Positions 41,024-48,052 of a DNA stretch of 64,000 nucleotides are shown piece by piece (the first letter of the stretch is position 1; each line of letters opens with the position of its first letter). Position numbers and translations under genes: made by a program. The stretch spans positions 608,001 through 672,000 of the forward strand of contig CP084166.1 in NCBI GenBank assembly GCA_021513695.1, given 5' to 3'. This stretch comes from Candidatus Heimdallarchaeum aukensis (GTDB taxonomy: Archaea; Asgardarchaeota; Heimdallarchaeia; Heimdallarchaeales; Heimdallarchaeaceae). Below the pieces are notes generated by a model, which was given only the letters and a program-made list of their open reading frames with translations, did no database searches and was not told where the DNA came from.

Positions 41024-43123
41024 ATGAGTAATACTGACAAAAAAATAGAGATTTTTAATAATCTTTTTTTAAAAATCAAAAAACAGATAATAGATAACCA
41101 GAGCAGTTCTAAACTTAAATTTGATGAAAGAGAAGTATTACTCAACTCATTTATTGTCTCAATAAAAACTCTTCTTATCAAAGAAATGTTTCTTAAGGAA
41201 GAAAAAGTTGAGATAGAAAAAAAAATTAATTTGAATTACTTTTTCATAGAATTAGATAATATCTTTAGAGAAATATTTACCGATGGCTCTTTCCGAAAAG
41301 CTGATTTAGAAATCATTAGAGAAAAATCAATACAACAACTGATTTTACAATACTTAGAAAGCAAAGACTCGATAATTATTGATTTAGCAGGAAAGGATTT
41401 ATTCTCTCAAATATATGAAACTGCCCTCAACAAAAATGAAAAAGATCAACTAGGCTTATTTTATACTCCTGAAATTATCGTTAATTATATCCTAAATTTA
41501 GTAAATTATAAGACTGATTCAGAAATTGTAAACAAAAAGATACTTGATCCAAGCTGTGGTTCAGGAAGTTTTCTAGTCAAATCTGTAAATAGGTTATTAC
41601 AAGCGTTAAAGAAAGAAAATTTAGAAGAAAGTGAAATTCTATACAAGATAAGAAATGCTGTTTTTGGTATAGACATTGATCCTATAGCTGTTTTTCTTTC
41701 TAAAACTAATATCCTATTCCAGATTTTTCCTTTATTTATCACCCTCTACAAAAAAAGAACTTTGACACAATTTCCTCCTTTGCATGTTTATTGTTTTGAT
41801 TCTCTAAACAAAAAAAGTAGAAATAAAGATACAACTTCTTTTAAGATTATTAATAGAGAAAAAGAGTTTACCTCAGGTTTTGATTTTATTGTTGGAAATC
41901 CTCCTTATATTGAATCTAAAAAAATGGATATTGAAACAAAGAAAAAATGTATAGAGAACTTTCCTGAAATTTGTAAAGGAGCTTTTGATATATACATCTG
42001 TTTTATTCAACTTGGTTTAGACTTACTTAGTGTAAATGGAAAGTTAGGTTTTATTATTCCAAACAAATTTCTTTCTGCTAACTATTCTAAAGCACTAAGA
42101 AAGAAGATTATCTATGAATTTGACATTCTACATCTAGTAGACCTTTCTTCTTCAAATATTTTTAAAAATGCAAGTGTTTATCCTATAATTATTTCAATTA
42201 AAAAAAGGAAATCTAAATCCGAAGGCATAAAAAATAACTTTTTGATAAGTAAAGTAGAAGGACAAATTACGAATATTGAGGAAATCAAAGGAATACCAAT
42301 AAATCAATCTTTTTTCAAAAAAACTGTTAATAACTTTATTTTTTCTTTTCCAAATGATTTAGACGAAGCAGAACTTGTAAAACGTTTAATTATGACTAGC
42401 CCTTTTAAACTTGGAGAATTCCTTAAGATTAGCTGGTCAGTTTCTTTCCATAGAAAAGGATTAAGAGAACAATTTGTTTTTACTAAAAATGTTGATGGTA
42501 ACTTTAGAAAAATTTTAGGTGGAAAGAAGTTTGGAGGAAATTCTGAAGTCAAAAGATATTTGATACAATGGGATGGTCATTGGATTGACTACAATAGAGA
42601 AAAAGCAAAAAGACTGAATAATCCCTTTCCTCCATTAAGTTTATTTAACAATGAAAAAATAATCATCTGTCAAAATAGCAAAAGAATTCGAGCTGTTCTA
42701 GACAAAGAAGGTTTCATTTGCAAAGATATTTTCTTTGTAGCTAAAATTACTCCAAAGACGCTAAATACAAGTCTAAATTATGAAGTGATATTATCTGTAA
42801 TTAATAGTAAACTAATGAGCTATTTATACGATAGAATTTTTTCTAGTACTCACGTTTCAGGAAGATATTTACACTATTTACCAACTTATTTACATTCACT
42901 TCCTTTTCCTAAACTGTCTGAAATAGAAAAAAAACAGTTACATGAGCTCACGAAGAAAATAATGAAAAAAGAGATAACAGAAAAGGATTTTATTAAAATA
43001 GATAAAGAAATTGATAAGATAATTTACAATGCATTTGGATTAGAAAATCATGAAATAGAAATAGTAGAAAAATATGTTTCATCGTATATGTCTTTAAAAA
43101 AATTAAAGGATATAAGAAAATAA
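41024..43123 (+). CDS. N6-adenine DNA methyltransferase, gamma-class (Eco57I/TaqI-like) with C-terminal target-recognition region
   Basis: Motif X LGLFYTPEIIV, motif I ILDPSCGSGSFLV and motif IV FDFIVGNPPYI in gamma-class order. No recognisable endonuclease domain. Confidence 0.85.
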   Translation: MSNTDKKIEIFNNLFLKIKKQIIDNQSSSKLKFDEREVLLNSFIVSIKTLLIKEMFLKEEKVEIEKKINLNYFFIELDNIFREIFTDGSFRKADLEIIREKSIQQLILQYLESKDSIIIDLAGKDLFSQIYETALNKNEKDQLGLFYTPEIIVNYILNLVNYKTDSEIVNKKILDPSCGSGSFLVKSVNRLLQALKKENLEESEILYKIRNAVFGIDIDPIAVFLSKTNILFQIFPLFITLYKKRTLTQFPPLHVYCFDSLNKKSRNKDTTSFKIINREKEFTSGFDFIVGNPPYIESKKMDIETKKKCIENFPEICKGAFDIYICFIQLGLDLLSVNGKLGFIIPNKFLSANYSKALRKKIIYEFDILHLVDLSSSNIFKNASVYPIIISIKKRKSKSEGIKNNFLISKVEGQITNIEEIKGIPINQSFFKKTVNNFIFSFPNDLDEAELVKRLIMTSPFKLGEFLKISWSVSFHRKGLREQFVFTKNVDGNFRKILGGKKFGGNSEVKRYLIQWDGHWIDYNREKAKRLNNPFPPLSLFNNEKIIICQNSKRIRAVLDKEGFICKDIFFVAKITPKTLNTSLNYEVILSVINSKLMSYLYDRIFSSTHVSGRYLHYLPTYLHSLPFPKLSEIEKKQLHELTKKIMKKEITEKDFIKIDKEIDKIIYNAFGLENHEIEIVEKYVSSYMSLKKLKDIRK

Positions 43124-43287
43124 CAGTTAACTGTTGTATAAGCTAATTTCTGCTTATAATGCAAAAATTCTATCTGATTATTTTTCAATGTCCTATCGTT
43201 ACTTATAATTTAAAAAGGTAAAAAATTAAAGGATTAAATGATTATTTCTCAAAATTAAAAAAAAGAGAAATAAATTATAAAAGAGTA

Positions 43288-43817
43288 TTAACTCATATCT
43301 TTGTTTACTTTCTCTGTAACTTTATCTAAAACTCCTACCTATTAGTTTATCTTTATTATATAGCTCTATTTCTTCTTTGACAGTAAGTGGGCTTTCTTGT
43401 GATAAATCTTGTTTATTTATAAGAATTAACAATGGTTTTCTGCTATCCACTATTAAAAACATGTAATCCAAAGAAAAAACGAGAAACTTCAAACGCATCA
43501 CTTTCAGATGAAGGTTTTATTGTTCCATCAATAACATAAATAACTGCATCGGCTTGAGTTACTCCTAAAGCCAACAGACTTTCCCGATAAAGTTCTTGTC
43601 CTCCTACATCGATAGCTGATAACTCCCAATCAGCAATTTTTATAGGTTGTTACCTAATATCTATCCCAAGAGTAGTACGTGGATCATCTAACACTGATTT
43701 TCCCGTCTCTAACTATCTAACAAGAGTAGTTTTTCCCGCACCAAAAGCTCATAATAATACAATATTTGCTTCTTTAGAAATATTTTTCTTTAAAAAAATG
43801 CTTCCTAACCAACTCAT
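43288..43817 (-). pseudogene. decayed Arf/Arl-family small GTPase gene (three in-frame stops and at least two frameshifts)
   Basis: Hand translation of the minus strand gives MSWLGSIFLKKNISKEANIVLL*AFGAGKTTLVR*LETGKSVLDDPRTTLGIDIR*QPIKIADWELSAIDVGGQELYRESLLALGVTQADAVIYVIDGT.... A frameshift then continues as ...LIVDSRKPLLILINKQDLSQESPLTVKEEIELYNKDKL. The segments include an Arf-like N-terminal amphipathic helix, a P-loop, DVGGQ and NKQD. Confidence 0.6.
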
Positions 43818-43939
43818 TAAGCTCAGCTAAAAATTTAATCACTATTTTAAAAACATTCTTTCTTTCCAAATCACTAGTTTATCTGTTGTTTCATTTATTT
43901 CGGAAAAAGTTAAAATCATAAAAATATAAATTGTAATTA

Positions 43940-45670
43940 ATGTCAAAAAACCAAAGTAACTTAGATACTAATCTTAAACAAAAGAAAGAGCTGAATAGCG
44001 AAAAAAAGAAATCTACAAAAAAGAATAGTAAAAACAAAGAAAAATGGTATATTAGATGGTCATTCAACATTTTATCAGTTTTTTTTGCAATTATCTCATT
44101 GATTGGTAGTTTTATTTTACTAATTTACGACATTTTTGTTCCTCGAACATTAAGAGAACTAGTTCCGATTTTGAATATGTTTAGAAAATATATCTTAATT
44201 GCAGCAGAACTTTTTTCGGGTAAAAAAAGCAAAGAAGTAGCAGAAGTTGTTTCAGAGCTAGAAGAGATAAAAATGAAAGAAGAAAAAATAATGAAGAACT
44301 ATCCTATTCGTCGAGGAATAGGAGAGGCTATTAACCTTGGTCTTCATCCCGTAATCATTTTTGCTATTCCAACAGCAATATGGGGAAAAAATCTTCATCA
44401 ATTGTTTGAAAGTTGGGGAATACCTGTTTCATTAGGCATATTATTGTTTGGAACAGGTCTATTATGTATTTCTTGGATAGCTACCATATTTGGGCCTATT
44501 TACGCATTATTTCATGAGTGCAGTATCTTTATGCTCAAAAGAGGGTCTTATCGTTGGGCAGAATTTTTTCAAGATTTAGAGAACCTTTTTGCTTTACCTT
44601 ATTACACTGCGAGGTCTAGTTTCAGCATTCTTGATGCTCCACCTATCTCTGCTGAAACTCTTGAAGAATTCAAGCTTGATATAATGGATGACATCGGACA
44701 AATAAAAAATAGAATTGCAGATATTCTTTCTCTTGATGCCACTCAAGTTCCAGAAAGATCAAAACAAATGTTACAAGAATTGCTAATCGAAACTCAACAA
44801 TCACTAGGTTCTATTAACATATCTGAAATAAAAGAAGTAACAGCAAGACAATTTGCACTCCTTATTTGGAATAAAGAAGGATCAATGTTCCCATGGAGGA
44901 GAAATGAAGCTCTAGAAGAATTTGCGAAGAAAAACAACATGTCTGTAAAGGAAGCAAAAAAAACTATTCAACTCATTGCAAAGAAAGCAGTTGAAGGATT
45001 TACTTCTAAAGACTTGTATTTTAGTATAATGATAACTGGAGCTTTAAAAGGAATTGCTGAACTAGAAGAAAAATATAAACAATTCATGAGTGATATAGAA
45101 TATACTTCTACTGCACTTTCACTTTCTTTAGGGGCACAACAATACATCATAGATACTTTTACAGAAAAACCATTCTACAAGAAATTACTTAAGGTTCTTG
45201 TAGATAGTTTTATAGCACTATTCTTACCTTATATAATGTTACTTGTTGTTATTTTCAAATACTTTAAACATGTAGTAGGCCAAACGATAAGAAATATTGT
45301 TAGCATTAAAGACTTAAAAAAGAAGAAAATATTTAGGAACAAGATAAAAGAAATTAAAGAAACACTTTACAGTTCTTATCATTCAATAGGAGATTCAAAA
45401 TTTAGCCTAAAAGAGACCTTTGACATAGATTTTGGAGAATTTTTCAAAAAACTCGGTAAATTTTTCGTAAAAGTTCTACTTTTAGTTCCTCTCCTATTTT
45501 GGAGTCTAATAAAGGCTATCTACATAAGAATACAAAAGTTGTTGAGAAGAAGAACGGAAGAGGAAAAGAACAAGAGAAAGTTTGAGAAAGAATTAGCAAC
45601 AAAAACTTTAGTAGCAATGTACGAAGAACTCTATGAAAAAATTGTTTTAAGCAACTTGTACTATACATAG
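43940..45670 (+). CDS. hypothetical polytopic membrane protein with K-rich N-terminus
   Basis: 576-aa ORF with several hydrophobic helices. No recognised motifs. Confidence 0.45.
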   Translation: MSKNQSNLDTNLKQKKELNSEKKKSTKKNSKNKEKWYIRWSFNILSVFFAIISLIGSFILLIYDIFVPRTLRELVPILNMFRKYILIAAELFSGKKSKEVAEVVSELEEIKMKEEKIMKNYPIRRGIGEAINLGLHPVIIFAIPTAIWGKNLHQLFESWGIPVSLGILLFGTGLLCISWIATIFGPIYALFHECSIFMLKRGSYRWAEFFQDLENLFALPYYTARSSFSILDAPPISAETLEEFKLDIMDDIGQIKNRIADILSLDATQVPERSKQMLQELLIETQQSLGSINISEIKEVTARQFALLIWNKEGSMFPWRRNEALEEFAKKNNMSVKEAKKTIQLIAKKAVEGFTSKDLYFSIMITGALKGIAELEEKYKQFMSDIEYTSTALSLSLGAQQYIIDTFTEKPFYKKLLKVLVDSFIALFLPYIMLLVVIFKYFKHVVGQTIRNIVSIKDLKKKKIFRNKIKEIKETLYSSYHSIGDSKFSLKETFDIDFGEFFKKLGKFFVKVLLLVPLLFWSLIKAIYIRIQKLLRRRTEEEKNKRKFEKELATKTLVAMYEELYEKIVLSNLYYT

Positions 45671-46720: not shown

Positions 46721-48052
46721 CTACTCCTCCGTCCTCAGATTCTCAACTTCTTCTGTCTCATAATTTCCTTCTTTTATAAATAGAAGAAAGAATGTACCTA
46801 TAAAATAGATAGATCCTGTAATGTAAAAAGCTAATTGGAAATTGAAGGGTTTATCGTATTTGTTTAGAATAACTCCTCCAATAGGTTGACTAATACTGTT
46901 AAAGGCTGTAAAAGCTAAAGCGTCAATAGCACTAAAAGTTGCTCTTTGACTAGAAGGTAAGAGATCCATTACTATAGCATTAATTAAAGGCCACCCAGCA
47001 TTCATAAAAGCCTGTCTAAGAATGTAGATAACAAGTACAACAGAGAAGGGAGGAATAAAAGCAAATCCAAAAATAAGAACTACAGCAATAAACTCTAAAA
47101 AGAAAACTGCTTTAGCACGACCAAATTTCTTAGCAAATCTTAAAGCAATGGCTGAAAGAATAGCAGTTATTAATGGAGCTAAAGAGAATATAAGTGTAAG
47201 TTCAGAAATTGTTCGACCATAAATTGCTTCAAAAAAGCGTGGAAGAAAAGGAATAGATATACCAGCTCCAAAAGCAATTAGAAAATCTGCTAGTACGATT
47301 ATTAAAGGAGTTCTATAGAATGATAATTTTTCTCTAAAGGTTTTACAGTTTTTATATTTAGATAAAATTAAAGCGTCTTTTTTCTTTTCTTCCAATATCT
47401 CTTTAGTCTCAATTTGACCTTTAGAGTGAATAGACCTTTTATCGTGAATAAAGAAACCTAAAAATGCTGCAAAGATTATTACTGAAGCATAGATTTTAAT
47501 CACAGGAAGAATAACTTCTTCAGAATAAAGATCACCTAAATACCTGTAGATAAAGAAACCTACAACACCACCAATAGCTGTACATAACTGTTGAATAATA
47601 GACATAATCGTAAAAATCTTTGTTCGTGTACCTTTAGTTGTACAATCAGCAACTAAAGCTGACCCTGCAGGCATCATTAAAGAATTAGCTAAAGCAAAAA
47701 GGAATTGAATTACATATAGATAGGTCAAAGAATTAGCAAAAAAGTAGATTATCATCCCAGCTATGAAAAGAAAATTTGAAATCCAGATGAAGGCATCTCT
47801 TCTCCATCTATCAGAAAGAATACCAGAGACAATTAATCCTATAATTCCTACTAAACTAGTTGTTCCAAAAATCAATCCTACATCTATGTCTGTACCTCCC
47901 CATACATACACTAAAAAGAGCGTAGCTATATAGAAAGGAGTTTGAACTAATGAATAAATTGCAAATGCTCCAAAATATAGTTTCAAATTCAGGTTTAAGT
48001 TCTTTAATAATGAGATTTGTGCTCTGATATTCGCCCCTATCATAGTCTCCAA
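46721..48052 (-). CDS. MFS transporter
   Basis: 443 aa, about 12 TM helices, and an MFS-like D-R-x-x-R-R loop (LSDRWRRD) between TM2 and TM3. Confidence 0.75.
   Translation of the reverse strand: METMIGANIRAQISLLKNLNLNLKLYFGAFAIYSLVQTPFYIATLFLVYVWGGTDIDVGLIFGTTSLVGIIGLIVSGILSDRWRRDAFIWISNFLFIAGMIIYFFANSLTYLYVIQFLFALANSLMMPAGSALVADCTTKGTRTKIFTIMSIIQQLCTAIGGVVGFFIYRYLGDLYSEEVILPVIKIYASVIIFAAFLGFFIHDKRSIHSKGQIETKEILEEKKKDALILSKYKNCKTFREKLSFYRTPLIIVLADFLIAFGAGISIPFLPRFFEAIYGRTISELTLIFSLAPLITAILSAIALRFAKKFGRAKAVFFLEFIAVVLIFGFAFIPPFSVVLVIYILRQAFMNAGWPLINAIVMDLLPSSQRATFSAIDALAFTAFNSISQPIGGVILNKYDKPFNFQLAFYITGSIYFIGTFFLLFIKEGNYETEEVENLRTEE

Follow-up and report, generated by a model that had tools for sequence, protein, structure and literature searches.

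The DNA stretch analyzed here, hereafter the window, comprises 64,000 nucleotides of the 3,081,793-bp chromosome of Candidatus Heimdallarchaeum aukensis (contig CP084166.1, positions 608,001 to 672,000; positions below are counted from the first letter of the window unless a contig is named), and its minus strand carries, at 43328..43817, the remains of a gene for an Arf-family GTPase. The remains span the first 163 of the 188 codons of the intact homologue P0001. They open with a start ATG (43817-43815, minus strand, as are all features of the relic described below) and the N-terminus MSWLGSIFLKK, followed by the P-loop GAGKTT (43742-43725), the G3 motif DVGGQ (43610-43596) and the G4 motif NKQD (43417-43406), the last of which lies in a frame shifted by one base. 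An original prediction, made from the letters alone, had described an Arf-family gene with these three motifs on this strand, and each was found where it had been placed. From 43817 the minus strand translates as MSWLGSIFLKKNISKEANIVLL, a stop, AFGAGKTTLVR, a second stop, LETGKSVLDDPRTTLGIDIR, a third stop and QPIKIADWELSAIDVGGQELYRESLLALGV through to SRFF, after which a second minus-strand frame carries on as DYMFLIVDSRKPLLILINKQDLSQESPLTVKEEIELYNKDKLIGRSF. We are highly confident that the locus is a unitary, non-functional ArfR-type pseudogene on the Ca. H. aukensis chromosome.

The similarity to Arf-family proteins, which the original prediction had proposed checking, is of overwhelming significance by tblastn, profile and structure matches. 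With the frames joined and the stops masked, the translation scored 49.6 bits (E 4e-13) against Pfam Arf (PF00025), for which the gathering score is 22.3. The frame-joined translation had 212 homologues, the best being the intact 188-residue P0001 (80% identity, E 4e-80), followed by more than 100 Heimdallarchaeota Arf-like proteins at 52-69% identity, dozens of them entries named [quoted passage not shown]. When P0001 was searched against the window by tblastn, its residues 1-116 aligned in one frame (85% identity) and residues 114-163 in another (76% identity). The corrected 163-codon frame has three stops, compared with the ~13 expected for a random frame of the same composition, and this low number together with the strong profile and homologue matches indicates that the Arf observation is real and highly non-random. 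The best solved-structure matches of P0001 were HodArfR1 (8OUL/8OUK) and eukaryotic Arl1 (E 3e-18). The N-terminal amphipathic helix of the original prediction is putative: the segment MSWLGSIFLKK, which passes from hydrophobic to basic residues and recurs across the family, had a best hydrophobic moment (muH 0.38) no better than that of shuffled sequences. By sequence comparison, then, the locus is a descendant of the Arf family and, as labeled by its best matches, of the Asgard ArfR-type GTPases.

The ArfR (Arf-related) GTPases of Asgard archaea (Vargova et al., bioRxiv 10.1101/2024.02.28.582541; structures HodArfR1 8OUL/8OUK and 8OUM/8OUN) are named AArfs by Zhu et al. (PMC11914678) and are reported to be nearly ubiquitous in Heimdallarchaeia (bioRxiv 10.1101/2024.02.28.582541, PMC11914678). 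They are the proposed ancestor of the eukaryotic Arf GTPases. The intact orthologue of the relic resembles them in its length (~190 residues), short hydrophobic-basic N-terminal extension, DVGGQ and NKQD motifs and Pfam Arf match, whereas the copy in the window is dead. Its similarity to HodArfR1 is modest (69 bits), which suggests a distinct ArfR subfamily, as assigned by best matches.

Lesions and their authenticity

The lesions were mapped against 29 aligned homologues and against P0001, which comes from a third Heimdallarchaeum-clade lineage (L003/L004) whose Arf is intact. Sequences from the sister species Ca. H. endolithica (L002, CP084167.1), which has 88% average nucleotide identity to H. 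aukensis (PMC8813620), and JGI metagenome contigs of close strains (L032-L034) were also compared. The in-frame TGA, TAG and TAA stops of the original prediction were found at codons 23, 35 and 56. The TGA (43751-43749; GGN to TGA, specifically GGA to TGA) replaces the first glycine of the P-loop, which is invariant in the 29 homologues, and occurs in all four assemblies. The TAG (43715-43713; TAY to TAG) stands at a position that is Tyr or Phe in homologues and is TAA in strain L033, and the TAA (43652-43650; CAA to TAA) replaces a Gln encoded by CAA in the closest homologues. A claim of at least two frameshifts was borne out for one. DNA alignments placed a +1 frameshift at codons 114-115, in a T6 homopolymer (43479-43474) that is common to L032-L034, whereas the intact orthologue (L003/L004) and H. 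endolithica have T5; this insertion is what puts NKQD into another frame. The second frameshift, near 43328, was rejected, as junction alignments showed a deletion of ~1.1 kb there instead. We also discarded a repair of the frame by dropping the G at 43469 (to give RFFFDYM), because the strain alignment shows T6 with TTTT-GAT. The ratios of nonsynonymous to synonymous divergence (dN/dS) given below were computed with the G-43469 repair, which differs from the favored repair (T5 to T6 plus F116L) in two codons only.

Missense changes accompany these lesions. W82L (43572..43574; TGG to TTG) is a late change found only in the window genome, altering a Trp that is invariant in all homologues and encoded by TGG in the three sister strains, and F116L (43470-43468; TTT to TTG) is private to the window genome under the favored frame repair. 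Columns invariant in the 29 homologues are hit in the relic by G23 (stop), S25F, W82L and L120F, and under the favored repair by F116L as well. The G1 P-loop motif GxxxxGK[ST] is consequently broken, reading stop-AFGAGKTT with its first Gly replaced by TGA and the invariant Ser25 by Phe, and G3 and G4 are both recognizable but in different reading frames. Three of the four identified point changes are from G/C to A/T, in a genome of 30% GC. Where a functional gene would have an uninterrupted open reading frame (ORF) with all G motifs, the locus has three stops, one frameshift and a 3' deletion. Its possible products are a 22-residue N-terminal peptide from the conserved start and a number of micro-ORFs, none of which has the complete set of G motifs. 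As no complete nucleotide-binding site can be encoded, the locus is inactive as a GTPase.

The sole true frameshift sits in a homopolymer (T5/T6), a classic site of sequencing error, and Nanopore reads were used in scaffolding the genome, both of which would fit an intact gene disrupted only by sequencing or assembly errors. However, the bases of H. aukensis come from Illumina reads assembled by SPAdes, Nanopore reads having served for the scaffolding (Wu et al., 2022, PMC8813620), and an independent Logan assembly of SRR15988954 matches the window base for base along 13,731 bp. The three strains L032-L034, from separate metagenomes, are 97.7% identical to the window over 10-12 kb and carry the same TGA, codon 56 TAA, T6 run and deletion junction, such that four independent assemblies, three of them from strains ~2.3% diverged, have the same lesions. 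Moreover, three nonsense codons of the substitution type and a 1.1-kb deletion would be atypical of error. We therefore consider errors an extremely improbable explanation, and the lesions, on the agreement of these assemblies, to be real and fixed. That they are common to strains ~2.3% diverged also indicates that inactivation is older than that divergence and that decay is ongoing; L034 has a further 1-nucleotide deletion inside the first 10 codons of the relic.

A different route to a functional product would be programmed recoding, with selenocysteine at the TGA, pyrrolysine at the TAG and +1 frameshifting at the T-run, or else a split protein. Selenocysteine or pyrrolysine is used by some Asgard archaea and the frame is otherwise well preserved, but all three stop types occur, including TAA, without any recoding system, and the TGA replaces the invariant P-loop Gly. 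The polymorphism of TAG and TAA between strains argues against a conserved TAG-specific decoding, the G5 motif and C-terminal helix are physically deleted, other invariant residues are mutated, and the adjoining genes use standard stops. All long neighboring ORFs are intact under the standard genetic code, which together with the three stop types and the TAG/TAA polymorphism leads us to reject an alternative code or recoding, and we give a recoded or split gene hardly any chance.

The relic has left a trap for annotation, as the original prediction had warned. Gene callers output micro-ORFs of 58, 39 and 47 residues at the locus, the first of them corresponding to a spurious 59-residue ORF with the NKQD segment (43322..43501, minus strand) that is reported as a 58-residue gene. 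The 699- and 576-residue proteins that flank the relic match UJG41351.1 and UJG41352.1 exactly, and these accessions are consecutive, with nothing deposited as a protein between them. The trap extends to the sister species, where a fragment of the Arf orthologue has been entered in both NCBI and UniRef under the name "50S ribosome-binding GTPase". Neither relic should be included when eukaryotic signature proteins are tallied for the two closed Heimdallarchaeum genomes.

The deletion and the lost partner gene

Homology to Arf ends after codon 163 (GRSF, last base 43328), at a deletion junction of sequence AGGAGTTTT (43328..43336, minus strand) that was located by local alignments to H. endolithica L002 8450-8471 and 9573-9643. 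Upstream of the junction the window aligns to the H. endolithica Arf, and downstream it aligns to a site ~1.1 kb away, at the 3' end of the gene that follows. In H. endolithica the deleted segment is bordered on either side by AGAATTTTT, and these 9-nucleotide direct repeats point to a deletion of the microhomology type, by slippage or illegitimate recombination. The junction is identical in L032-L034. The deletion took away Arf codons 164-188, and with them the SAK (G5) motif and the C-terminal helix, a region that is kept in P0001 and in the H. endolithica relic. What remains at 43327-43288 (minus strand) is the last 13-14 codons and stop of the neighboring gene, hereafter the partner, reading VLDKVTEKVNKDMS and a stop compared with FLDKITEKVKKEMG and a stop in H. 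endolithica; tblastn with P0126 matched here over residues 267-278 (75% identity). Of the segment 43288-43817 assigned to the Arf gene in the original prediction, the start at 43817 was correct, whereas 43288 is the stop of this tail and the Arf sequence ends at 43328.

The partner family consists of proteins of ~349 residues without annotation, with full-length relatives in Heimdallarchaeia and other Asgard metagenome-assembled genomes (MAGs) only; an exhaustive profile search identified ~30-40 full-length representatives. Against Pfam the family had nothing better than E 0.01. The protein is predicted by fold to combine a longin domain at its N-terminus with a GTPase-like domain, lacking a P-loop, at its C-terminus, and no GxxxxGK[ST] was found in the family alignment, in which GPLP and DxR are invariant. 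Sequence homology of the C-terminal domain to Arf was considered and discarded (hhalign probability 0.3%), the likeness being structural only. At least eight contigs have both the Arf and partner families, and in L007, L008, L012, L013 and L014 the partner starts 19-29 nucleotides past the Arf stop. Neither a partner nor a partner relic was found downstream of the intact Arf in L003/L004 or L005, so the adjacency is not obligatory.

The longin-like N-terminal domain of the partner also occurs on its own, unannotated in Pfam, as the C-terminal part of TPR, WD40, receiver-PAS and PAS-PAS proteins (P0212, P0220, P0261, P0219 and P0242). From these architectures it looks like an uncatalogued output or adaptor module of signaling proteins.

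Decay in the sister species and relaxed selection

The original prediction had suggested that an intact copy be sought at the syntenic locus of related genomes. In H. endolithica the gene order is the same as in the window (576-residue gene, Arf, partner, methyltransferase, ApbA) and the Arf orthologue is present (L002 7983-8548), but it too is dead, by different lesions: TGA at codon 5, G26V in the P-loop, DVGGQ changed to DVDGQ, a 1-nucleotide deletion near codon 126 and TAA at codon 147. None of these is common to the two species. Its longest ORF is the 123-residue protein (P0102) deposited as a "50S ribosome-binding GTPase". The H. endolithica partner (L002 8569-9622), deposited as a 300-residue hypothetical protein, has TAA at codon 21, which is also present in a 95%-identical relative (L035), and two homopolymer frameshifts within the first 68 codons, and is probably also a relic. 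As the H. endolithica genome was assembled from Nanopore reads (PMC8813620), residual errors could account for its homopolymer frameshifts; its nonsense and missense changes are probably real.

Because no lesion is common to the two species, the Arf gene was inactivated after the H. endolithica split, and thus between that split and the ~2.3% strain divergence. The "recent loss" of the original prediction accordingly stands with respect to the species split and is refined by a lower age limit set by the strains. A rough estimate, from ~11 excess changes over ~370 non-synonymous sites (0.03) against a branch dS of ~0.5, would place the inactivation within the last few percent of the separate history of the lineage. 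Synonymous sites are saturated among the three lineages (dS ~0.9-1.3; 0.6-1.1 in adjoining genes).

At sites where the other four sequences agree, we counted 12 private amino-acid or stop changes in the window and 11 in H. endolithica, compared with one in the intact L003 copy (binomial p = 0.003 and 0.006 for the window and H. endolithica, respectively), and a neighbor-joining tree gave long branches to both dead copies. Judged from these sequence counts, selection on the Arf gene is relaxed relative to functional orthologues. Relaxation would extend to the whole Arf-partner module in the genus.

Several observations weigh against a gene that is dead and freely decaying. Pairwise dN/dS remains low for the dead Arf copies (0.07-0.13), most of their divergence having accumulated before inactivation, and the argument for relaxed selection consequently rests on the excess of private changes. 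The between-strain ratio of nonsynonymous to synonymous polymorphism (pN/pS) is 0.52, compared with 0.10-0.45 in neighboring genes, on only ~6-10 substitutions per strain, and is consistent with neutrality while being underpowered. More distant ArfR paralogues may exist in these genomes, such that "loss of ArfR" refers to this orthogroup only. Finally, a TATA-box-like element, TTTTTAAAA (43853-43845, minus strand), identified in a four-way alignment 28-36 nucleotides upstream of the ATG, is still conserved in H. aukensis, H. endolithica and the intact-Arf lineage, and from this promoter-like sequence the relic may yet be transcribed.

This last observation raises the question of whether the relic, dead as a GTPase, has a secondary role as a transcribed spacer, as an antisense RNA to the convergent methyltransferase gene or as the source of the 22-residue hydrophobic-basic peptide. 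The start region, like the TATA-like element, is conserved across lineages, and three of the four strains have kept codons 1-22 intact. The exception, however, is L034, with its extra deletion within the first 10 codons; the substitutions between strains are scattered with no protected sub-segment; there was no Rfam match for a structured RNA at E<=1 in 42900-44200; and promoter conservation is no more than expected for the short time since inactivation. A secondary role thus appears very unlikely.

A more serious question is whether the visible lesions record two independent losses. Both species have dead copies of both genes, and the third lineage (L004) also has no partner downstream of its intact Arf, a pattern that could arise if the lesions in both species were later, secondary decay after a single relaxation of selection in their ancestor. 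Against this, the two species have zero lesions in common, the Arf of L003/L004 is intact and slowly evolving with its one private change, and private change makes up a small fraction of the branch (dS ~1). We regard secondary decay as a less likely account, though one with an appreciable chance, and favor separate losses. Among the best 120 of the 212 homologues the only protein from a contig longer than 1 Mb was P0102 of H. endolithica, and a pattern scan, which reached the H. endolithica chromosome CP084167 but not that of H. aukensis, found a single locus there; neither closed genome appears, from these searches, to have an intact close copy. On these data, the clade of the only circularized Heimdallarchaeum genomes can do without one conserved ArfR orthogroup, which has decayed there twice with no lesions in common.

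Proposed switch module and surrounding genes

The history that we propose begins with a two-gene unit, in which ArfR would have been followed within a few bases by the ~349-residue longin plus P-loop-less GTPase-like gene. In H. aukensis the ArfR would have gained three single-base nonsense mutations, the T-run slippage insertion and missense changes at invariant residues, after which the ~1.1-kb deletion between the AGAATTTTT repeats would have joined Arf codon 163 directly to the final 14 codons of the partner, removing the G5 motif and essentially the whole partner gene. In the intact unit, by analogy, ArfR would most likely act as a switch, and the co-translated longin platform would read or set the nucleotide state of ArfR, making the partner a putative regulator or effector platform of ArfR; the basis of this model is operon linkage and predicted fold only. 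Possible analogies are MglB-MglA, SRX-SRbeta, FLCN-Rag and SMCR8/C9orf72-Arf. More broadly, it is possible, and we put this forward tentatively, that the pseudogene marks the last visible stage in the collapse of an undescribed Heimdallarchaeial two-gene switch module, repeatedly lost, in which ArfR was translationally coupled to a cognate longin plus P-loop-less GTPase-like regulator or effector platform. If so, this would be a rare Asgard case of one particular small GTPase being matched to one particular longin protein by genome layout, and the deaths by different lesions in H. aukensis and H. endolithica, along with an apparent cluster deletion in MAG 12F4_9, would be natural knock-outs for ArfR signaling.

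The apparent deletion concerns an Arf paralogue in that MAG (L028, JAHLVW010000062.1, 6001-6240) that breaks off after codon 77 and is joined directly to the sequence that follows the partner gene in L008 and L012. The gene after this encodes an M20 peptidase that shares 84% identity with its L008 counterpart. This arrangement implies either a ~5-kb deletion of a whole cluster running from Arf-a to Arf-b and partner, or mis-assembly, in this single assembly.

The partner resembles known longin and roadblock platforms (the FLCN-FNIP, Lst4, Nprl2/3 and SMCR8-C9orf72 GTPase-activating protein (GAP) complexes; Asgard longin-GTPase fusions, PMC10933270; SRbeta-SRalpha(SRX)) in its genetic coupling to an Arf-family GTPase. 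It differs from them in having no sequence match to a Pfam family or the Arf profile and no P-loop; in the Rag GTPases, the domain order is reversed relative to that of the partner (longin then G-like). For the GAP longins a "GP motif/arginine finger" has been published (PMC12290439). In MK-D1 the genes for small GTPases do not, as a rule, share operons with roadblock or longin genes, which hampers the assignment of partners (Tran et al., PMC10933270), and it has been asked whether ArfR or Rag proteins partner with the Heimdallarchaeial FLCN/SMCR8-type longins (PMC12290439). The ArfR-longin/GTPase-like gene pair, as a pairing suggested by genomic context, bears on which GTPases partner which Asgard longins (PMC12290439, PMC10933270). 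By term searches we found no gene-neighbor or pseudogene analysis of this kind in the two ArfR studies (bioRxiv 10.1101/2024.02.28.582541, PMC11914678), only a passing mention of possible pseudogenes.

As a pseudogene the locus is a known kind of object in a known family. Its mutational spectrum (nonsense, T-run slippage and a 9-nucleotide direct-repeat deletion, fixed in the population) is that of ordinary prokaryotic unitary pseudogenes, from which it does not differ in kind. Its interest is moderate and lies in the gene family affected, the parallel and repeated loss in sister species and the exposed ArfR-longin pair.

Convergent with the pseudogene is a gene for a 699-residue solitary Type II N6-adenine DNA methyltransferase (UJG41351.1, 41024..43123, plus strand; Pfam Eco57I/N6_Mtase/TaqI_C), which matches PADLOC MTase_II over its full length (308 bits) and lies in the same position in H. 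endolithica. No restriction partner was found beside it, in agreement with its earlier description as an orphan. Between the two species the methyltransferase has 78% amino-acid identity (dN/dS 0.13), compared with 85-92% for most neighbors, and it and a GHMP kinase are the most diverged proteins of the neighborhood. On the other side and divergent from the pseudogene is the gene for a conserved 576-residue protein with no Pfam family (UJG41352.1, K9W45_02555, 43940..45670, plus strand), which anchors synteny in all three Heimdallarchaeum-clade lineages. In the more distant MAG L005, a methyltransferase homologue also lies near the homologue of the 576-residue gene. Directly upstream of the latter, within 43890-43939, ~45 nucleotides (TAATTACAWTTTAYWTTTTTAYRATTTTAACYTTTTCYGA) are near-identical in H. 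aukensis, H. endolithica and L003 and more conserved than the surrounding intergenic DNA; they are probably the promoter or 5' leader of this gene.

Elsewhere in the window, a 301-residue gene (38048-38953) and an MFS transporter gene (46721-48052) have 44 and 34 synonymous differences per strain, respectively, compared with 4-17 in their neighbors (strains of ~97.7% identity), an unevenness that suggests recombination imports or patchy divergence. Two adjacent, intact Ras-family GTPase genes lie at 56-547 and 629-1195 (Pfam Ras, E 4e-31 and 6e-26), and thus other small GTPases have been retained nearby in this genome. The first of these matches the Ras profile only from position 18, and its true start may lie further upstream.

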